NCBI RefSeq assembly: GCF_006345805.1
Contig: NW_021834547.1
Span: 1-47,308 of the forward strand
DNA: 47,308 nucleotides
From: Octopus sinensis
Taxonomy: Eukaryota
Direction of reading: 5' to 3'
A program made the position numbers and the translations under genes. The notes beneath the pieces are model-generated. The model was not told the origin of the DNA and ran no database searches. It saw only the letters and a program-made list of their open reading frames with translations. Of this stretch, positions 10,975 to 45,931 are shown piece after piece (positions within the stretch are counted from its first letter, which is position 1; every line of letters begins with the position of its first letter).

Positions 10975-11660
10975 CTTATCTCAGGATCTTGAACTTCAGA
11001 GATGTGATTAAAAGCTTGGACACAATGGAAGAAATTATAGAGAACCAGTATCACTGGTGATATGCAGTTCTCCAAAAGACATACCACCTCAGTGGAACGG
11101 TGCTCTTGTAAAGTTGTGTATGTATGTTTATGTTTAACTCGGACCTTCACCCAATTTCAATTCTCTTCAAGCATCCACCACCTCCATCAACTCCCTAACA
11201 CCAGTTCTTACTTGATACCACTTTTCTTTCTATCCAGAATAAATTCACTATTTATCCATCCTTCATCATTTAATATTGTTCTTTCCACCCACACTTTCAT
11301 TCATCACTCCCACCCACCCCACTATGCCATCAAATTATCTCGCCGCCGCCGCCACCACTACACCTGTCACCCTCTCCTTTCTCTTCGCCGCTCATTCCTC
11401 AGTCTACTCAACAGCATGTCATCTCTCTTGTCTTTTTTACTGTGCCATCTTTGTTTTTCCTGTTGTTCTGTATTATAAGATAGCTCCTGCTCCCCACGAA
11501 TTTCTACCAATCTTTTAGCTTCAATGTCCTTTTTGGCACCTCGTAACCCCTATCGTCCATCATTTTCCTTCTCCACTCGTTCATCTCTCTCCTGTGTAAC
11601 AACGAACTTGTTCTGTTCAAACCCTTTTCGCTCATACTTTACTGCTTTCTACTCCTAATT
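10975..11660 (+). repeat. Unclassified pyrimidine-rich interspersed repeat (inverted homolog at 21400-22095)
   Basis: CCCTTTTCGCTCATACTTTACTGCTTTCTACTCC (about 11622-11655) matches the reverse complement of about 21405-21438; the 5' ends are also similar. Confidence 0.6.
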
Positions 11661-12794: not shown

Positions 12795-12897
12795 ACATAC
12801 ATATATATAACATACATATATATATACATACATATTATATATAATACATACATATATATATATATATATACATACATATATATATATACATATATAC
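12097..12897. repeat. (TA)n/(TATG)n/(TACA)n compound microsatellite
   Basis: Direct sequence. Confidence 0.95.
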
Positions 12898-15843
12898 ATG
12901 GCACTCACAGAAACGCATCTTGAACCCGATATAGGTGATGCAGAAATACACATGCCGCAATATGCAGTCATACGCACAGATAGAAAAGGGAGGAGCCATG
13001 GTGGAGTTGCAATGTACATCCGAGATGACCTCACGCCCCAGGTCCTGCTGTCATATTCAAACTCAGTATGTGAAACTCAAATTGTACACATAAGACAACT
13101 GAATATCGTCATATGCACTACATATCGCCCACCAGACGCCCCAAAACACTCAGGCATGTTTGAAGACTGCCTAACAAAAATAGAAGTCCTCACCAACCTT
13201 GAACAGCACAACAGTGTATTCTTCATGGGTGACTTTAACCTCCCCAATGTGGAATGGCCTGGGGGGCAGATGCTCCCAGGGATGACACACCATCAGCAGG
13301 CACAGGTGGAGTCCCTGCTCCATCTCACAAATACCTCTTTCATGGAGCAAATAGTTCTGCAACCAACAAGGGCAGATAATATACTGGATCTGCTTCACAA
13401 ACAATATGGATATTATCCATAATGTTAATGTGATGCCGACAATGATCTCGGATCACAACATAATAGAGCTGTCTATGTATGGAACAAAAGCCCCTGCATA
13501 CACACAGCCTATACGAAGCACCTACCATCTCTCCAACTTAAACTTTCATAAATCAAAGTCACTGGAAGTCGATTGAGAAAGAGATCCTCAAGCAGGATTG
13601 GCCTGAATGTCTCTCCACACCGGACATAAACATGAAACACAAACACTTCATGTCCATAATACAAGCCATATGTGACAATATGTCCCAATGTGCAGGGCCA
13701 GCACACACAAGAACAAAAACAGGATCCCTAGAGAAAGGAGGATTCTTATGAGACGACGGACAAGGATTGCAAACCGCCTGAGCAAGCACAGCAAAAGTGG
13801 TGAGAAGTCTCGGCTCGAAAGAATGCTAATGGAAACTGAGAAAAAGTCTACATCAGTCCCATGAAAAGGGAGAGAGCAGATAAAGAAGCTTGGGTAATAG
13901 AAAATATAAAATCAAACCCTAAAGCTTTCTTTAAGTTTGCCAAAGAGACAGCCACAGTGCACCAGAGAATAGGACCTCTCTTCCAAAAAGATGGCTCTCT
14001 CACAGGAAATCCCACGAGGATAAGTGAAATACTGAACAAACAGTTCCAAAGTGTGTTCACTACACCTCTAGGACACAGGCAAGTAAACAACCCAGAAGAA
14101 TTCTTTGCCACTTTACCAGCGGCCAAAGAGACAAAAATTGAGTACATCAACATCGAAGAAGATGATATCACACTAGCCATTGATGAGATTGACACAAACT
14201 CAGCTGCTGGACCTGATGGATCCCAGCGATCCTTCTCAAATCGTGCAAACGAGCCCTTGCAAAACCGCTACAGCTTCTTTTTCAGAGCTTTCTTGCAAGT
14301 GGTAAGCTCCCAGTCAAACTGAAAGAGGGGGTAATATGCCCTATCCATAAGGGAGGTAGCAGAGCAGATGCTAAAAAAATTAGGCCTATCTCTCTGACCT
14401 CACACATCAGCAAAGTCATGGAACGAATAGTCCGTAAGAAACTAATCATCTTCCTTGAAGAAAATGACTTACTGTCTGACACCCAGCATGGATTTCGACC
14501 AGGTAGAGGCTGCCTAACACAGCTCCTGCAACACTATGACTGGGTGTTGAAACAGCTACTAAATGGCTCAAATGTGGATGTAATATATCTTGACTTTGCA
14601 AAAGCCTTTGATAAAGTCGACCATGGTATGATCTGTCACAAACTGCGTGGTCTCGGCAAAGGCGGGAAACTTGGAGAGTGGCTGCACAACTTCCTAAAAG
14701 ACAGAAAACAGGCAGTGGAGCCACCTCCAGGGAAACGCAAATAACAAGCGGTGTCCCACAGTGCGCTGTCTTGGGGCCACTGATGTTCATAGTGGCCCTT
14801 TCAGACATGCCTTCAGTTGCTACGATGACCACCCTTGCTAGCTATGCAGATGACACAAAAGTCTCCCACGCAATACAAAACCCTGAAAATATTGCGCATC
14901 TGCAACATGAGCTGGACACAATATACAGGTGGGCTGAGGACAACAACATGCAGTTTAATGCAGGTAAGTTCCAGGCCTGCGCTACTGGCACACAAAGGTA
15001 AATGACGTGAAGACTGGATACACTGGCCCAGGAAGAATTGCAATCCCTGAGTCAAATCAGTGCGTGACCTGGGCATTGACATGAGCAATGATGCATCTTT
15101 CCAAATGCATATTGCTAATCTGGTGATAAAATGCAGACGGCTAGCTGGATGGATTCTCCGAACTTTCAGAACAAGAGAGAAGGAGACACTGATGGTCCTA
15201 TGGAAAACATTTGTCCTCAGCCGCTTGGACTACTGCTCCCAACTTTGGTCACCACACAATATAAAACAAACAGCAGAACTCGAAGCAACTTAGAGAAGCT
15301 ACACAAAGAAAATCGTCTCAATGCAAAATGTCAGCTACTGGGAAAGACTGAAGGTATTAAACCTCTTCTCCCTCGGAGCGAGGCAGAGGAGAGAGATATG
15401 CAGTGATACATCTGGAAAATCCTGGAGGGTCTTGTCCCAAACTTTGGCATTCAAAGTTACTCCAACCGCAGAACGGGGCGCCGCTGTGTGGTGCCAAGGA
15501 TTCCAACATCACCATCAAAATACAGGTCCAGATACTGCAACAGCTTGGGTTTCAGAGGACCACAGCTCTTTAACATCCTCCCTAAATGCCTGAGAGACTT
15601 ACATGGTGTGGATGTGGGTTTCTTTAAAACTAAACTGGATCTCTTCTTGTTGGGAGTCCCAGATGAACCTACCTCACGACAGGAGACACAGGATGCGGGC
15701 AGCAGCATCGAACTCCCTTGTTGATCAAGTCCCACGTATCAGAGGTGGATTCACAAACTAGTGTAGCTCATTCAGCGGTGGTGCCCCAGCATGGCCACGG
15801 CCTTCGGGCTAAAACATTTTTAAGGATTTAAGGATTTTAAGGA
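12898..15843 (+). mobile_element. CR1/L2-group LINE, near-complete frameshifted ORF2 (APE endonuclease + RT) with 3' UTR and (AAGGATTT)n tail
   Basis: ALTETHL, GGVAMY, YRPP, MGDFNLP, PTRADNILDL, QHGFRPGRGC, YLDFAKAFDKVDH, SGVPQ..VLGPL, YADDTK, LDYCSQLWSP. Confidence 0.95.
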
Positions 15844-17302: not shown

Positions 17303-17509
17303 TTTCTTACAAAATATATACAACTGCTTAAGAAGTATTCGAGTCGAACCAAAGACAAAAGATAAGAATTTTAAAATATCTCAAATTCGGCAATCAACTT
17401 TGTTTTACATAGGAATACATAGTTATAAATTCGATTTAAAATGTATATATATATATATATATATGTAGAGGGAGAGAGAGAGAGAGAGAGAGAGACCTTG
17501 CTGCATGCA

Positions 17510-17950
17510 ATCAAGCCCTAAGCATAGCACTCGTGGAAACTCACCTCACCCCTGAAATAGAGGATGCAGAAGTACACGTACCAAAATATATCATACTGCG
17601 AACAGACAGAAGGGAAAGGAACCATAGAGTTGCTGTATACATCCGTAATGACCTCAAACCCAAGGTCTTACTGTCATATTCAAATTCAGTACGTGCCATT
17701 CTAATCGTATACATAAAGCAACACAATACAGTCATATGTAATACATATTGCCCACCGGAGGCTCCAAACCACATAGGCAAGTGTGAAGATCGCCTCACAA
17801 GAATTAATGAAATCCTCATGCAACTGGAACACCACGTGAGCATATTTCTTATGCGTGATTTCAACTTCGCCAATGTCAAATGGCCCGAAGGCCTCATGCT
17901 CTCAGTAATGACTCATTGAAAATAAGCACAGGTAGAGTCCCTGCTCAACC
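17510..17950 (+). mobile_element. CR1/L2-group LINE endonuclease fragment
   Basis: ORF 17533-17919 (ETHL..ILRTDR..VAVYIR..YCPP..RDFNF) is paralogous to 12898-13422. Confidence 0.9.
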
Positions 17951-20406: not shown

Positions 20407-20409
<3 letters not shown>

Positions 20410-20559
20410 CAAAACAGTTTGATTCAAATTCGTTGTGATTTAAGCGCGATGCAAGTCGTTATCCATTTTGAATTTGAACTCAAATTCAAAATGGCTGACG
20501 ACTAGCATCGCGTCTGAAACTCAAAAGTACCAACGAATTTGAATCAAACTGTTCTGATT
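20407..20559. mobile_element. Fold-back (palindromic) MITE-like element
   Basis: Near-perfect inverted arms AATCAAAACAGTTTGATTCAAATTCGTTG / CAACGAATTTGAATCAAACTGTTCTGATT, with centre CCATTTTGAATTTGA-AC-TCAAATTCAAAATGG. Confidence 0.75.
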
Positions 20560-22259: not shown

Positions 22260-22531
22260 CATACATACCTCCCCTCTGACTGGCCACTGGTACTTATAGT
22301 GTCAAATACTTTCGGTATGCAAATTAGAGATCCTTACATAGAGTAACTGCAGCATTTGTTGAGTATAGAAACAGTTTGGCTGCTTGTTTCGCTGGACACT
22401 GTCAGAATGATGTGGATATCTCTCATGAGAACGCAACAAGGGTTGAAAATCAATTAAGGTTGTTCATTATCTTTTTTTTCAATCTGTGGAGAAATGCCTA
22501 AAATTTACCCTGTTTATAATTATACCATATG

Positions 22532-23699: not shown

Positions 23700-24100
23700 G
23701 ATAAAAAAGGGCAAAAAAGTTAAGAAAAACAACAACATGGTACATGCAAATTGTTAATAGACGCTCACAGAAGGAAGGAAAGAAAAGGTGTTTTACGTTT
23801 CAAGCAAAGGTCTTTTTCAGATACAGGAGACAGAGTAAAATCCAAGAGAAAATTAAGACAAAGGGGAAATAAGGATTCACATAGACTCGGGTACTTGAAA
23901 ATATATGTACCAGGTAGGGTTGGATAAACTGTGTTTCCGGTCTATGGTTGATAAGTATCAAATCGGATATTCTGGTTGTGTACACAGAGAAACCAACTTC
24001 ATGAACATCGGACACTTATGAGAAAAGATGGAAGCAAGTGGTAGGCGTGTTGGGAATGAAAGATCCTACATGAGTGTGTCCATAAAAGGTTAACAAAAGG
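23700..24100 (-). mobile_element. Penelope-pLTR-like fragment with degenerate hammerhead (23788-23826)
   Basis: Minus strand TGTAT CTGAAAAA GACC TTT GCTT GAAAC GTA AAACA; the fragment ends at (TA)n. Confidence 0.5.
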
Positions 24101-24636
24101 TTTCAGTGGAGGAACGCGTTCTGCGGGGTCATAAACTGTTTCCCCTCCATCAGTACTTTGCTTGTTCGTCCCTCATTCGATATATTCCGTAAAATTTCAA
24201 ATTCATTACGTAAATACCATTCGCTTACGTAGACCCCGCATTTCATTTTGTATTGTCCCTCTGTGTTTCGTCCTTGCGGTCGAAATAAAAGTCATTCGTA
24301 ATTTCTCCTTTTTTGGTACGTGTTTCATTTCTGCTGAAAGTTTTGGCGTGGATGGTTGTGCTTTTGTGTGCTGCTTTGCAGCGGTCCTTTTTGTGAAAAG
24401 CCACCATTCGTTTGGTGGTTGTCAGTCGTTGAGAAAATGAAAAGCTATGCTGAATGAACAGAGGGTCGAACGTGTGTTGACCCGAGGGTACTGAAGCAGA
24501 ATGTATTCTTTCCCGATTTGGGACTGATGAAGAAATGTGGAAGTTTGATCAAGAGGGAGGGGTCAAATGTAAAGATGTCTCTTCCAGAGCGAGAGCGCGC
24601 TGTAATAAGAAAGAGGACGATAACATACAGAACTTT

Positions 24637-24772
24637 TAAATTTCTAAATATCTCAGAGATATAAGCAGTGGTGGTACGATAGAGCAGCTGTATATTGCCA
24701 ACTTAACGTGACAGTCCCATAAAGGGAATCACACCACCGCTATTTAGTCCCGGGAAGCATCAACGCTTCCTG
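24637..24772 (-). repeat. Structured leader repeat, copy 2 (copy 1 at 26828-26925)
   Basis: TAAATTTCTAAATATCTCAGAGATATAAGCAGTG..TCCCATAAAGG.AATCAC..ACCGCTATTTAG.CC..GGAAGC..GCTTCCT is shared; copy 1 lacks about 35 bp internally. Confidence 0.85.
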
Positions 24773-24844
24773 TCGGTCTTGACACATTTCCTGTGTCCTT
24801 ATGTTTACATGGGGGAGACAAGCACCCCCTCCAGCCAAGCCTGC

Positions 24845-24888
24845 ATCCAGAGACATGTTTCTGAGTCTTGCTCGTCATCAGTCTGGAT
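24845..24888 (-). ncRNA. Minimal type-I hammerhead ribozyme, core intact
   Basis: AUCCAGA CUGAUGA C GAG CAAGA CUC A GAAA CAUG UC^ UCUGGAU: 7-bp stem I, canonical core, palindromic ACAUGU helix III and GUC cleavage triplet. Confidence 0.85.
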
Positions 24889-25318
24889 TAGCATGGCTTT
24901 TTTCTTTATTATAGGCACAATGGCTTGATTATATAGAGGGGACATAACAAGACAAACGGGAACATAACACAAATGATGTATGATTGATGGAATGATTAAC
25001 AAATAATGAGAATGAGACGCTTCGACTTACTTCCGCTGCGAGACGAACTCTGAACTTTTCACATTAATTCTCAATACCATCGTGTCTCACTGTGAAGCGA
25101 AACCACAATGGTCTTCGTATCATTATCGTATAAAATGTATCATTAATTGTTCACATTAGTCTTTCTATTTTCCTTTTCTATTTTATCTTTTTTTTTTCCA
25201 AGTATTACATTTTTTCTTTTTTTTACAATTTCACAAAACACAAGTTCAATTCTCAGTTCATTTACAGTTCAATTCACAGTTCTTTTTAAACATTAATTGC
25301 ATTACGCTCGTAATTATA

Positions 25319-26779
25319 TTACCGTCTGCGTTTTTTACCACATTTATACTTTACACGACATTTCTTCTTCCTCTCGTTCTCTTTCTTTTCTTGTGTTCTC
25401 CTTCTCGAGTCTACCGCTTCGTTCACATCTTCCTCCGTTTGTGTATCTGTAATTTCTCCCGGCTGCAAATACGTCTCTTCCATCTGTTGTTCTTTATCTT
25501 TGAGCTTAAACAACTTTAGATTTCCTCGCCATATACTTCTTCGTTTTGCAGTTCCATCGCTCTCAATATCTCTTCTATAGTTGGTTCCTCAGTGTTACCA
25601 TTCTAATTAATATTATCTGCCATTCCTCTATCCGTTTCCATTTTTTCTAAAGTTGGTGAGTTTTTCAAATACTTCTCTTCCGTCTGTTCTTCTTTATCTT
25701 TGAGCTTAAAGAACTCTAGATTTTCTCGCTCTGTTTTGTCTTCGTTTTGCAGTTCCATCGCTCTCTCTATCTCTTCTATAGTTGGTTCTTCAGTGTTACA
25801 GTTCTGATATGTTATATTCTCTGCTATTCCTTTACTTTTTTCGTTTCTTTTAAAGTTGGTGACTTTTTACGTTCTCTCTTCCTGCTCTTCACCATATTAG
25901 TTCTATTATTGTTCCCCCTCTTCATTTCGTCGGCTGCATTTTCTTCCACAATTGTTTCCAACCTTTTCTCTACTTCTGTATTCGGGCATTTCCTTCGCAT
26001 ATGCCCCCTTATGCCACACAAGTAGCATTTTGGGGGTCTTCCCTGCAGCACAATATCTAACTTTTCACCGGTCGGTAATTCAATTTCATAACCCCCAAAA
26101 TTCAAGCATTGTTTTGCTCACTGTTAGTACGTTCAACTTTGTATTTCCTCTCTTCAAATACTCTCTGAAGATTCCCACTATTACCCATTCAGGCTCTATT
26201 ATGGGTGGGATTCTTCCAACTCTAATTTTCACTAACATTTTCCTGGTTTGTCGGGTATGAGAGTCCACCTATTTCCTTCTATCACTTGGTCGTTCCTCTT
26301 TGCCGCCTCCACATTTTCAAATATAACATTTACCTTGCCGTATTGGCTTCCTCTATTTATAAAAAAAACACTATAACCATACAGCACTATACCATTGCTT
26401 CTATTTGAAATTCAGGTGCTATTTCAATCCTCCTGGATTCGTTGGAGAATGTTCTGTATGCTATTGTTGAATTCCTTAACATTTTCTTTTTCTCCTCCGA
26501 CATTATAAGCTTCACATTCGTTGCTTCTCTTTCTACTTTGCTCATGTATCTCTTCATCTTTTCAGGGTCCCAATTCAACGACTTCGGTGTTAGGCTTCTT
26601 AATTTCTCTTTTTCCGGGTCTTCCACTGTCGCTTCCGCGTAGCTCTTGATTTCCAATTTTTCTTTTACCACCAAACGTCGGCTTCGTACGCATCTTCGAT
26701 TAGCTTCTCTCAAAAAACAACAAAACCTGGAGTAGCATGATTTGCTAGCTGCAGATACCTGTCTAGATCTTGTGAACAT
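25319..26779 (-). mobile_element. Frameshifted gag/ORF1-like protein with CCHC zinc knuckle (Tx1/L1-like ORF1)
   Basis: ORFs 26387-26887, 26086-26268, 25824-26105 and 25319-25513; KSYAEA, VKIRVGRIPP..EW and QGRPPKCYLCGIRGHMRRKC (CX2CX4HX4C), with a K/E-rich C-terminus. Confidence 0.8.
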
Positions 26780-26827
26780 ATATAATTCCAGTGAAATAAA
26801 TCCACTGATCACAAAAAATCGAAATAT

Positions 26828-26936
26828 TAAATTTCTAAATATCTCAGAGAGATATAAGCAGTGATGGTATCCCATAAAGGAAATCACATTACCGCTATTT
26901 AGCCCTAGGAAGCGTCGATGCTTCCTAGGGCTAAAT
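26828..26936 (-). repeat. Leader repeat copy 1, bounded by a perfect 17-bp hairpin
   Basis: Similarity to 24637-24772; ATTTAGCCCTAGGAAGC-gtcgat-GCTTCCTAGGGCTAAAT at 26897-26936. Confidence 0.85.
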
Positions 26937-27553
26937 TAGATATTGACTATTACTGATATTAGATTATTGGTGGGTTTCTTACCTTAAAAATTAATACATA
27001 AAAATTAAAATTAATATTTAACATTTGCTAGTTTTATTCCCATTGATAAATATATTTATAGTATTTATAGTATTTATTCGATACTATATAACTACGAATT
27101 GATTATTTCAGTAAGTATTTTAAATATAGATTTCCGAAAGTTCGTTTAAGTTTGTTGTTGTATTTTTGAAATTAGCTATTTCATCTTTAAATATGAAAAA
27201 TTAATTTATTAGGTCTTTATTATATGTGCATTATATTTATTTATAGAGATTATTTTAGATCTTAATTATTATATATATATACATTTATATATTTTCATTG
27301 ATAATTTATATATAAAGTCATTTTTTTAAAAATTTATGTAATTAGGTATAGACTATTACCGATATAAGATTATTGGTGGGTTCTTACCTAAAAAATTAAA
27401 ATTAATATTTAACATATAATCGATTTTGATTGTAATCATAATCGTAAGTTTTAAGTTTCTAGTTGAAAATAGAGATTATTATAAGTAAAATTATTATTTA
27501 TTTATATTTAAAAATATTGTTTACTATTTCTGATTATTTTAAATATTTCAATT

Positions 27554-27648: not shown

Positions 27649-27789
27649 TTACTCTTTATCTTTTATTAAACTTTTAATACTTTTGATATTTATATAATAA
27701 TTTTTTAAAAAATTAATAAATAAATAAATTTATAAATAAAATAATATATAAATATAAAAATATACATACATATAAATATATTTATGCTT

Positions 27790-28240
27790 ATGGTTATGTT
27801 TTCCAGTTTCAGCTCTTGAGCTGTGGCCATGCTGGGGCACCGCCATTTGGTGTTGCTACATGATTTTACCTCATGAATGCATTTTAGCAACTGCCATTTG
27901 GTGCATGAGAGAGTTTGATGTAGCTTCCCTCATCTGCACCTCCTGCCGTAAAGTTGGTTCATCCTGGACACCTGACAGGAAGAGATCCAGTGGACTTTAA
28001 AGACATCCGCATCCACCCCATGGAGGTCCCTCAGGTTCTTCGGGAGGATATTGAAGAGCTGTGGGCCTCGGAAGCCCAGGCTATCACAGTATCTTGTCCT
28101 ACATCTTGATGGCAAATTCGGAGTCCTTGGCACCATGCAGTGGCGCCCAGTTCTGGCATTTGTGTAACTCTCGATGCCAAAGTTTGGGACAATTCCTTCC
28201 AGGATCTTCCAGATGTATATTATGGCATATCTTTCTCGCC
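27790..28240 (-). mobile_element. CR1/L2-group LINE 3' end
   Basis: VPRTPNLPSRCRTRYCDSLGFRGPQLFNILPK plus the same 3' UTR as 38515-39270. Confidence 0.9.
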
Positions 28241-28643
28241 TATTTGTATATATATATATTTGGAATTTATAAGTTTAAATTATTTAAATAATTCTTTGAA
28301 ATTTTAAATTTTATATTTTTTAATTAATTTTATGTAATGGCTTATGCGTTTCACTGTTTGATTTGCCTAATAGTGGTTTTATCTCTAATTTATAATATAA
28401 TATAATATATTTATACTATAAAATTGGATTTAATCCTAAATCTAATTTTTTCCTGTAAGTTTGGATTTATTCCCTAATATTATTATTATAACTTTATATA
28501 TATATATATATATATATACAACCCCCCACACACGCGCGCGCGCACAAAAAAGTTCATTCCCACGTCTATATGCACCTATAGACATGGAAAACAGGGCTAA
28601 AGGCAATATATATATGTGTGTGTGTGTGTGTTTGTGTGTGTGT

Positions 28644-38142: not shown

Positions 38143-38210
38143 GTATGTATATATAATATATATATATATACGTATGTATATATATAATATATATATATAT
38201 ATATATGTAT
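37360..38210. repeat. (TA/TATG)n microsatellite
   Basis: Direct sequence. Confidence 0.95.
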
Positions 38211-38461
38211 GAGAGACCTGCAAGGTGTGGATGCAGATGTCTTTAAAATGAAACTGGATCTCTTCCTGTCAGGTGTCCCAGATGAACCAACTTCACGGCA
38301 GGAGGTGCAAATGAGGGCAGCTGCATCGAACTCTCTCATGCACCAAATGGCAGTTGCTAAAAAACTTTCGTGAAGTAAAACCAAGTAGCAACACCAAATG
38401 GCGGTGCCCCAGCATGGCCACAGCTCATAAGCTGAAACTAGAATCAATCAATCAATCAATC
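38211..38461 (+). mobile_element. CR1/L2-group LINE extreme 3' end with (AATC)n tail
   Basis: Near-identical to 39020-39270. Confidence 0.9.
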
Positions 38462-38494
<33 letters not shown>

Positions 38495-38514
38495 TGTATG
38501 TATATATATATATA

Positions 38515-39270
38515 TGACCTTTCATGTACATGTTGCTAAACTGACAATGAAATGTAGACGGCTGGCTGGATGGATTCTTAGAAACTTTAGAACAAGAGAA
38601 CAAGAAACGATGATGGTCCTCTGGAAGACACTTGTCCTAAGCCACTTTGACCACTTTGACTATTGCTCTCAGCTATGGTCACCATCCAGTGTCAAGTTGA
38701 TCACAGAACTTGAGGCGATCCAACGAAGCTACACAAAGAAGATAGCCTCTATGCAGAATGTAAGCTACTGGGAAAGACTCAAGAGATTAAAATTATATTC
38801 CCTGGAGCGTAGGCGGGAAAGATATGCCATAATATACATCTGGAAGATCCTGGAGGGAAGTGTCCTGAACTTTGGCATCGAGAGTTACGCAAATGCCAGA
38901 ACTGGGCGCCACTGCGTGGTGCCTAGGACTCCAAACCTGCTATCAAGATGTAGGACAAGATTCTGTGATAGCCTGGGCTTCCGAGGCCCACAGCTCTTCA
39001 ATATCCTCCCGAAGAACCTGAGAGACCTGCATGGGGTGGATACAGATGTCTTTAAAATGAAGCTGGATCTCTTCCTGTCAGGTGTCCATGATGAACCAAC
39101 TTCACGGCAGGAGGGGCAGATGAGGGCAGCTGCATCGAACTCTCTCATGCACCAAATAGCAGTTGCTAGAAAGCCTCCATGAAGTGAAACCAAGTAGCAA
39201 CACCAAATGGCGGTGCCCCAGCATGGCCACAGCTCATAAGCTGAAACTAGAATCAATCAATCAATCAATC
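38515..39270 (+). mobile_element. CR1/L2-group LINE 3' fragment with (AATC)n tail
   Basis: ORF 38514-39182 (GWILRNFRTR..DYCSQLWSP..SYWERLK.LKLYSLERRRER). Confidence 0.95.
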
Positions 39271-39537
39271 ATGTATATATATATGTATGTATATATATAT
39301 ATATTATATATATATATATGTGTGTGTGTGTATGCATATATATACATACACACACACACATATATATACATATATATATATATATACATACATATATATA
39401 TATATACATACATATATATATATATATACATACATATATATATATATACACATATATATATATATACGTATGTATATATATATATATACATACATATATA
39501 CATATATTATATATATATATATACATGCATATATATA

Positions 39538-39593
<56 letters not shown>

Positions 39594-39631
39594 CATATAT
39601 ATATACATGCATATATATATATACATACATA

Positions 39632-39890
39632 TCTCTTATTATAAAAGGCAGATTTTATCTGCCTCCCTTTGGGAGTTATACAAATCTACAATATAGGATT
39701 CTTCAATTACAATTTACCTAGCATTTTTGAGAGTACAATGCATCGCGTCATGCCAGGTCCAGTTTTTAAAATTTAAACTCCAATTAAGCAAAATTTACAG
39801 AAAACTCACATTCTGGTGTGTGTGTCAAATGCTTTTCTTAGTCTGGTTTACACCACACGCAAACGCACACACACAGTGGGCAACGAATAA
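39632..39890 (+). mobile_element. Probable Helitron-like 5' fragment
   Basis: A|TCTCTTATTATAAAAGGCAG resembles the 5' ends at 44268 and 40804; no 3' CTAG end found. Confidence 0.4.
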
Positions 39891-40429
39891 AATGAAAGTA
39901 AATAGCGACAGAGTGATTTGAGGAAGACTAAAGTGAAAGTATTCTGTCTATGACGCTGATAGATACATGAGTAAAATGTATGGGAAGCTAAAAGCTAAGA
40001 GTGAGTGAAAATGTTCTTGGAAGAGAGTAATTAGTAATAAAGTAAACATACACTCATACATACATACATACATACATACATACATACGTACATACATACA
40101 CACACACACACACACATACACACACACACACATACATACATACACACATACATACATACATATATATACATACATACATATATATACATACATACATATA
40201 CATACATACATACACACACACACATACACACACACACAGTATTGAAGCTTGAGAACAATCAAATACATTTGCAACACATCTGTTGAAAATATTATTGTTC
40301 ACACACATACATATACATATATACATATATATATACATACATATATACATACACACACACACACACATGATCCAGCATGGCCACAACCTCAAGGCTGAAA
40401 CATATAAAAGAATAACAGAATATAAATGT

Positions 40430-40790
40430 GTGCAAAGTACAAGAAATATTAATGCAGTATATAGGGATTGGACAATAAGCGTAAGGCAGTGTCAATGGTG
40501 GTTCTAGAAATCCGAGCCATAAACTACAGCCTAGAAGACGAGCCTCATCCTGAAAGATCTGTAGAACTCGACAAGGACATCCTGAAAACCCTGGTGGAAC
40601 AAAATATCATCGTAACTGTTGAGGAACTAGCAGAGAAGCTTGGATTTGGTCATTCAACCATTCATTGACACCTGTGTGCTATCGGAAAAGTCAGCAAATT
40701 GGGTCAATGGGTTCCTCACGAACTTTCCGAGTCTAATTGCATGCAGAGAGTGAATGTATGCTTTTCTTTGCTGTCATATCTCACCACTAC
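40430..40790 (+). pseudogene. Mariner-family transposase N-terminal fragment
   Basis: TRNINAVY..TISVRQCQWWF*K.R..NYSLEDEPHPER..VTVEELAEKLGFGHSTIH*HL.AIGKVSKLGQWVPHEL (WVPHEL is diagnostic). Confidence 0.9.
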
Positions 40791-44656: not shown

Positions 44657-44694
<38 letters not shown>

Positions 44695-44709
44695 TAATAT
44701 ATATATATA

Positions 44710-45931
44710 AAGTCGATCATGGAATGATATGTCACAAACTGCGTGATCTTGGCATAGTTGGAAAATTGGGAGAATGGCTTCATGACTTTCTGAAGAATAG
44801 AAGTCAGGTGGCCACTTCCATTAACACGCAAATAATGAGCGGTGTTCCGCAGGGCACTGTTTTGGGACCACTACTGTTCATAATGGCCCTCTCAGACATG
44901 CCCTCAGCCACGCAGAGAGCCACGATCACAAGTTATGCAGATGATACAAAAGTTTCACAGGCAATGCAGAACCCTGAGGACACTAAGCACCTGCAATGTG
45001 AGCTGGACGAAATATACAAGTGGGCTGAAAAGAATAGCATGCAGTTGAATGCTGAAAAGTTTCAAGCTTTATACTATCAGCATGCAAAACTGAATGCAAT
45101 ACCCATTGAATACACTGGACCCGGAGGGATTGCAATCCCAGAGGCACAATGAGTGCGTGACCTGGGTATTCACATGAGTGATGACGCGACCTTTCATGTA
45201 CATGTTGCTAAACTGGCAATGAAATGTAGACGGCTGGCTGGATGGATCCTTAGAACCTTCAGAACAAGAGAACAAGAAACCATGATGGTCCTCTGGAAGA
45301 CACTTGTCCTAAGCCACTTTGGCTATTGCTCTCAGCTATGGTCACCATCCGGTGTCAAGATGATCACAGAATTTGAGGCGATCCAACGAAGCTACACGAA
45401 GAAGATAGCCTCTGTGCAGCATATGAGCTACTGGGAAAGACTCAAGAGATTAAAGCTCTATTCCCTGGAGCGTAGGCGAGAAAGATATGCCACAATATAT
45501 CTGGAAGATCTTGGAAGGACTTGTCCCAACTTTGGCATCGAGAGTCACACAAATGCCAGACCCGGCGCACTGCATAGTACCAAGGACTCCAAATTTGCCA
45601 TCAAGATGTAGGACAAGATATTTGTGATAGCCTGGGCTTCAGAGGCCCAAGCCCTTCAATATACTCCCAAAGAACCTGAGGGACCTGCATGCTGTATATG
45701 CGGATGTCTTTAAAGTAGGACTGGACCTCTTCCTGTCAGGTGTCCCGGATGACCAAAGCTTCACGGCAGGAGGTGCAGATGAGGGCCCTCGCATCGAACT
45801 CTCTCATGCATCAGATGGCGTTTGCTAAAAATCATCCGTGAGGTAAAATCGTGTAGCAAACAATATGGCGGTGCCCCAGCATGGCCACAGCTCATTAGCT
45901 GAAACTGGAAAAATCAAAATCAAAATCAATC
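44710..45931 (+). mobile_element. CR1/L2-group LINE, 5'-truncated RT to 3' end
   Basis: [29 protein letters not shown], and the 3' UTR with (AAAATC)n tail. Confidence 0.95.

Follow-up and report, generated by a model that had tools for sequence, protein, structure and literature searches.

A type I hammerhead motif in a high-copy short repeat of Octopus sinensis, likely a decayed non-LTR retrozyme

The described systems closest to the locus reported here are the non-LTR retrozymes of metazoans (Cervera and de la Pena 2020, PMC7229834), which include axolotl HHR_Amex1/newt satellite 2 and mussel repeats of 350–390 nt. Retrozyme units are given as 170–400 nt (PMC7229834), and animal genomes are reported to hold thousands of such hammerheads (PMC4209133, PMC7229834). 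The minimal hammerheads of Penelope-like elements (PLEs) are described as having a helix II of 7–8 bp, a helix I of 4–5 bp and a poorly defined loop 1 (PMC4209133). Partial tandems with inverted 5′ ends are presented as a signature of PLEs (bioRxiv 2021.04.23.441226), whose enzymes are reported to start at internal stem-loops and to prefer AT-rich targets, hammerhead cleavage being dispensable in vitro (PMC11167929); PLEs are put at 6.83% of the O. vulgaris genome (PMC13282606). Schistosoma hammerheads are described with an internal loop 1 of UCCA:GUAC and a loop 2 of CAAAUA with a 5′C/3′A opposition (PMC2632901). Further related papers are PMC2837043, PMC6155905, PMC1636495, PMC6765202, PMC11875169, and PMC3064770. 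In the literature searched we found no report of an octopus or cephalopod hammerhead, although Lunse et al. 2017 or the supplement of PMC7229834 may list one; the main text and single supplement of the 2026 O. vulgaris repeat annotation likewise yielded none (PMC13282606).

We analyzed a 47,308-nt stretch of Octopus sinensis DNA (the window). The locus is probably best explained as a canonical type I hammerhead carried by a short repeat of high copy; the repeat is likely a non-LTR retrozyme that depends on Penelope enzymes and has a putative ∼347-nt unit, and the present copy has likely decayed and would cut little as a monomer. Its features are as follows, with the basis for each in brackets.

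24837–24899, minus strand: type I hammerhead with extended stem I (descriptor and folding)
24630–24836, minus strand: remainder of repeat copy A, which lies downstream of the cut and is rich in hairpins (repeat comparison and contig depth)
26821–26936, minus strand: repeat copy B, 5′-truncated and without a 38-nt stretch of A (repeat comparison)
26727–26820, minus strand: spacer and a coreless version of the stem-I 5′ strand of the hammerhead (alignment and contig joints)
25325–26650, minus strand: decayed ORF1-like gene with RNA-binding-like domains and a CCHC zinc knuckle (profile and protein searches)
24900–25324, minus strand: A-rich 3′ region that closes with an AATAAA signal and a short A run at hammerhead stem I (sequence)
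24434–24649, plus strand: beginning of another, diverged ORF1 that belongs to the same family (∼40% amino acid identity, 0 of 500 shuffles as good)

The hammerhead motif: class and predicted activity

The hammerhead motif is present on the minus strand, with its core section at 24888–24845, and contains the CUGAUGA, GAAA, and GUC elements listed in an initial annotation made from the letters alone, which gave no strand. C3 lies at 24881, A9 at 24875, G12 at 24861, and C17 at 24852, positions 10.1 and 11.1 are C (24874) and A (24862), and the predicted cut falls between 24852 and 24851, at C17. All core positions of a type I hammerhead are occupied as expected (C3-U4-G5-A6-N7-G8-A9, G12-A13-A14, A15.1-U16.1, and H17), and beside stem II (pairing probability 0.82) the open stem I, for which at least 4 bp are expected, has 6–7 bp and an outer 8 bp, in agreement with the type I assignment already made. 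Stem I consists of 6 bp followed by U1.7 and a UAA bulge (the seventh pair of the annotation can form in their place) and then of 3+5 bp beyond the bulge, overlooked earlier, that extend it to 24899/24837. Also as annotated, helix II has 3 bp, with the loop CAAGA under a C.A opposition, and the palindrome is ACAUGU. Helix III is a single pair. The label “minimal,” however, does not suit a motif that combines this 3-bp helix II with an extended, bulged helix I and canonical contact residues.

An exact-core descriptor has a single match in the window, and a descriptor that includes the palindrome matched once in the real sequence and in none of 3000 shuffles; among 300 shuffled windows a strict descriptor matched once and a loose one 15 times. 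Allowing one core mismatch added only a weak match at 22418–22460 (plus strand; 4-bp stem I, 2-bp stem II), which we take to be due to chance. An inverted repeat pair elsewhere (16559–17320/43937–44709) contains CTGATGA (16902 minus, 44361 plus) and none of the rest of a hammerhead. The 44-nt core folds no better than shuffled sequence (z −0.85, 35 of 200 as good); with flanks, 24835–24900 gives z −2.68 with 3 of 200 as good. An Rfam search, which the annotation had proposed as a check, returned no hammerhead family at E≤10 with either a 501-nt or a 71-nt query, leaving the motif short of the gathering threshold, and there was no hammerhead among the 150 of 215 whole-window matches listed. Pattern searches found 0 matches in viral contigs and 0 in prokaryote genomes, and the four metagenome matches to a 23-base descriptor are attributed to chance as they lack proper stems II and III.

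The G10.1-C11.1 pair of type I hammerheads, described as usual and not strictly defining (PMC4209133), is replaced here by the C.A opposition or, in an alternative pairing, by a G-C pair shifted by a single base on both sides. Contig X5 record 15 covers 24858–26836 with four substitutions, all outside the motif, and no gaps. The motif is also covered by contig X1 record 7, which has those four substitutions and four gap letters of unplaced position. As the two independent contigs agree in the mismatch letters, the C.A does not stem from an error of assembly. Internal loop 1 has UGCA on its 3′ strand and CUAA on its 5′ strand (CUAC in copy B). Its exposed U (U1.7, 24845) and the 3′ A of loop 2 match the canonical contact residues in sequence, whereas the extrahelical pyrimidine expected in loop 1 is missing from the core-bearing copy (UAA) and kept in the coreless copy B (UAC). 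The motif thus reads as a type I hammerhead of canonical geometry, given that in PLE minimal hammerheads the proportions are reversed (long helix II, short helix I), with two departures, the C.A at 10.1/11.1 and the A that replaces the bulge pyrimidine.

A scan for Pol III promoters with the B-box motif pattern placed none of its 12 matches inside the repeat, no tRNA genes were found, and the motif has no upstream promoter of the kind that marks Sm-alpha-type SINEs. In its architecture it is nevertheless similar to the Sm-alpha hammerhead of Schistosoma mansoni as described (PMC2632901), which shares the 6-bp inner stem I, the exposed U followed by an internal loop, and a loop 2 that starts with C and ends with A, and whose UAC bulge is retained in copy B; loop 2 is 5 nt here rather than 6, and the bulge pyrimidine of the core-bearing copy is A. 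With PLE minimal hammerheads the motif shares the palindromic 15.2-16.2 and loop 3 (ACAUGU), dimer dependence, and a context of partial tandems and inverted ends (PMC4209133; Lunse et al. 2017 as cited in PMC6765202). It differs from them in its short helix II, its long bulged helix I, the lack of G10.1-C11.1 beside the core, and the lack of an RT-GIY-YIG ORF beside the motif. We therefore reject a pure PLE minimal hammerhead, in view of the 3-bp helix II and the extended, bulged helix I with tertiary-contact residues.

Secondary structure prediction, which ignores tertiary contacts, places the active monomer fold 7.3 kcal/mol above the minimum free energy (p ∼1e-6), with loop III paired to core A6-U7-G8 at p 0.7. 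On the same terms a strand-swapped double hammerhead reaches −43.6 kcal/mol compared with −41.6 for two monomers, and the dimer minimum (−45.0 kcal/mol), in which the core is mispaired with helix II, lies 1.4 kcal/mol below the active dimer. Since no second core was found in the 47-kb window, only a dimer in trans could form from this locus, and by these energies it may be thermodynamically feasible. The motif is predicted to cut poorly as a monomer. A C.A opposition at 10.1/11.1 would be expected to lower the cleavage rate. Indirect support for the cost of such a mismatch comes from PMC544870, and we found no measurement of it in the literature searched. Axolotl HHR_Amex1, which likewise has a 1-bp helix III and a palindromic tetraloop, is reported to cut 6% in 1 h as a monomer and well as a dimer (PMC7229834), and the view in the annotation that hammerheads of this kind depend on dimers agrees with published descriptions (PMC4209133, PMC7229834) and with the folding here. 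Its ranking of the motif as the best candidate for an active ribozyme in the window holds trivially, as the motif is the only descriptor match, and is weakened by the departures at 10.1/11.1 and the bulge pyrimidine and by the want of a cis dimer partner. The copy is probably weak or dead.

Repeat copies, contig depth, and the putative unit

In a self-comparison of the window, 24630–24771 (in copy A) is repeated at 26821–26926 (in copy B). Copy B begins with a 40-nt fold-back palindrome (26897–26936), and the end of copy A near 24630–24636 is likely the 3′ end of the insertion. Stacked hairpins common to both copies (24630–24760 and 26821–26915, minus strand) end in a near-perfect palindrome at the shared 3′ end; they have no match in Rfam and are possibly an initiation or recognition structure for reverse transcriptase (RT). 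Eighty nucleotides after the end of copy B, at 26740–26727, lies a coreless version of the stem-I 5′ strand that is identical at 12 of 14 positions and has the bulge UAC. A 14-mer with two mismatches is expected to match by chance ∼0.3 times in the whole window (uniform bases); what lends this match weight is its placement relative to copy B. Alignment of the spacer with the DNA upstream of the hammerhead found no significant similarity (343 of 2000 shuffles scored as well).

Contigs from 4 of the 24 listed runs (X1, X5, X6, and X9) were aligned to 23750–27000 at 80% likeness. X6 and X9 are runs marked “DNA?”, represented by contigs and not raw reads, and X1 and X5 were used only to check letters because they are RNA only by guess, and contigs as well. 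Joints between spacer and hammerhead (24897→26744/26747) occur in both X6 and X9 and are weak, as they have only 21–23 letters on the short side at 80% likeness. From these joints and the ending of copy B in a coreless stem-I strand we infer a unit of ∼347 nt. The putative 347-nt unit has a GC content of 0.44 and a circular fold of z −3.1, and its opposite strand folds as well (z −3.8). Joints to the opposite strand were not taken as evidence for inversion, because hairpins may produce the same pattern.

Contig depth over the repeat exceeds that of its neighbors by a factor of tens to hundreds and declines toward the repeat 5′ side. In the two DNA? runs it is 286–1,990 in the 16 bins between the copies (24949–26692) and 34,920 and 31,041 in the hammerhead bin, with 78,022–255,627 in the bins at 24622–24839; summed contig depth is not a copy number, and part of the depth in the hammerhead bin may stem from contigs that cover only stem I. 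Loose ends at 24826 (37 and 32 contigs) retain the stem-I 3′ strand, U1.7, and a GUC or UUC triplet, and at 26821, where the repeat ends, 34 and 33 contigs break off and enter unlike, AT-rich DNA (agreement 0.49 and 0.46). The relative depth and the many distinct flanks point to many genomic copies, as in retrozymes. Among the 40 of 440 variant rows listed, none gives core or 10.1/11.1 letters of other copies. Outside the repeat, small indels and substitutions at 24135–24194 cluster relative to all X1 and X5 contigs and the deep X6 contigs, and are likely local assembly errors or a private variant.

Like the non-LTR retrozymes described in PMC7229834, the locus combines a type I hammerhead, a 1-bp helix III with palindromic tetraloop, and loop 1-loop 2 contact residues with high copy; the putative 347-nt unit, with its GC content under 50% and self-paired fold, may be a further point in common. 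It departs from them in having one core at the locus and a helix II of 3 bp with C.A where 4 bp are usual (PMC7229834); it is moreover split by an ORF1-like insert and is known here from sequence alone. Tandem units that each carry a hammerhead are not found, the window containing a single core, although the contig joints give a hint of tandems in the wider family. As the locus thereby falls short of the two-hammerhead criterion set out in bioRxiv 2026.07.22.740005, we file it as a likely retrozyme fragment rather than an active member.

ORF1-like genes adjoining the repeat

Copies A and B are separated by the minus-strand ORF1-like gene, which is decayed by stops, frameshifts, and a 201-bp internal duplication. 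Its zinc knuckle scores above the Pfam cut-off, its best match is an Octopus vulgaris-labelled protein (75% identity), and a PDB search with P0001 gave zinc-knuckle matches only (E 0.4–0.9). The protein family has 101 representatives, with a zf-CCHC-type match in 6 of 23 scanned and an RT in 0 of 23, and its Atlas neighbors are CCHC, ZCCHC3-RBD, RRM, and DUF4283 clusters, an architecture that we take to be that of LINE ORF1 of the L1/Tx1 kind. An autonomous LINE would have an endonuclease-RT ORF2 after ORF1; here ∼430 nt of A-rich DNA and then the hammerhead follow, and no endonuclease or RT was found downstream. Between the repeats only zf-CCHC was detected; there is no GIY-YIG in 90 further frames and no RT adjoining the repeat (21+90 frames), so that the RT and GIY-YIG ORF expected between the pseudo-LTRs (pLTRs) of a PLE was not found in these frames. 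The A-rich tail insert is bounded on both sides by nearly duplicated 14–17 nt, as in a LINE insertion. Endonuclease-RT LINE fragments lie elsewhere in the window (12811–15700, 17440–17946, 27744–28242, 38210–39632, and 44664–45600; Exo_endo_phos and RVT_1, mutual repeats) and often end in (TA)n tracts. Other elements are a mariner remnant at 40253–40504 (plus strand; weak match to a Mos1-type transposase HTH that, with E 2e-4, falls short of the cut-off), a MITE-like self-inverted element of ∼150 nt at 20407–20559 (81% palindrome), and an old inverted repeat pair at 11145–11684/21375–21975 (66% identical).

The plus-strand ORF1 runs head-on into the repeat and is cut off by the repeat end near 24636; contigs X6 record 17 and X9 record 26 extend for another 609 letters that differ from the window. 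Its remainder was not found beyond 26936 and is absent from the window; therefore this gene was not simply split by the insertion. Upstream of it, five alignments gave no significant remnant of repeat or hammerhead (90–496 of 500 shuffles as good). Near-identical contigs over ORF, junction, and unrelated flank have like depth (X6 539–717, X9 148–190), which suggests that the whole block was duplicated rather than being mobile as a composite. The depth of ∼4,100 at 24929 in both DNA? runs is unexplained by block duplication.

Origin of the locus and its meaning

Under the favored explanation, tandem transcripts would adopt a double-hammerhead fold, its 6-bp helix III built from two ACAUGU-type palindromes, and would be cut to unit length. 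A Penelope-like reverse transcriptase/endonuclease would then write the RNA into AT-rich DNA, starting at a constant 3′ position, and would leave 5′-truncated partial tandems with a fold-back 5′ end. Here, a partial tandem made up of copy B, spacer, hammerhead, and copy A may have landed in an old ORF1-type LINE remnant, after which a piece of a related LINE, limited to ORF1 and an A-rich tail, would have entered the stem-I 5′ strand, duplicating ∼14–17 nt, and the entire block would later have been co-duplicated.

The repeat could instead be the pLTR of an autonomous PLE, the window holding truncated ends only and no free short retrozyme unit. Shrimp, rotifer, and fly PLEs are reported to have hammerheads with a small palindromic helix III (PMC4209133) and retrozymes to be pLTR-derived (bioRxiv 2026.07.22.740005), and the partial tandem, fold-back 5′ end, and drop in depth toward the 5′ side fit PLE ends; the canonical geometry, the lack of a GIY-YIG match and of an adjoining RT in the 21+90 frames scanned, and the spacer-to-hammerhead joints, which suggest a short unit, nevertheless make this unlikely. 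That the arrangement of repeat, ORF1, hammerhead, and repeat is a mobile composite, either a PLE-moved non-autonomous element with an ORF1-like RNA chaperone or an ORF1-only LINE targeting the hammerhead stem, is in our estimation rather improbable. Its layout resembles pLTR-ORF-pLTR, two diverged ORF1s of one family adjoin the same repeat, contigs of depth 717 and 190 span the spacer/ORF junction with ∼4,100 at 24929, and the Terminons of bdelloid rotifers are described as hammerhead-ended elements with accessory ORFs, their hammerhead-bearing repeat lying downstream of the ORF as it does here (PMC6431247). The octopus locus, however, has no telomeric repeat beside the hammerhead, no RT, a small size, and a dead CCHC ORF1-like gene as cargo; the depth is alike over ORF, junction, and flank, as block duplication predicts, and diverged relatives of the flanking ORF1 run on without the repeat.

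We give little credence to monomeric activity, in which this copy would trim a local transcript at its 3′ end and tertiary contacts would offset its weak helices. All core bases, U1.7, and the 3′ A of loop 2 are intact, and the G-C beside the mismatch could act as 10.1-11.1 at the cost of an added base on either side, such an addition after A9 being reported as tolerated (PMC4209133), but the 1-bp helix III, the predicted misfold, the A in place of the bulge pyrimidine, and the dead upstream ORF count against it, and 8 of 9 predicted Xenopus retrozyme dimers were reported uncut in vitro (bioRxiv 2026.07.22.740005). The chance of a fortuitous descriptor match, as the silence of Rfam and the stemless metagenome matches might suggest, is negligible and largely refuted by the 0 of 3000 shuffles, the extended stem, the canonical loops, and the repeat context.

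The retrozyme interpretation that we prefer makes this hammerhead ordinary in kind, likely a worn copy of a known retrozyme type, although of a hammerhead family missed by Rfam, and would add cephalopods to the hosts of retrozymes. The ORF1 link is the only part likely to surprise specialists. On the present evidence it is doubtful that octopus genomes contain a family of hammerhead-ended elements with a LINE ORF1-like zinc-knuckle gene either as cargo or as an agent that targets them specifically. If they do, a retrozyme would supply an RNA chaperone of its own, a candidate protein factor of the kind believed to be required by weak dimeric hammerheads, or alternatively would offer an ORF1-only LINE its insertion site within hammerhead stem I.
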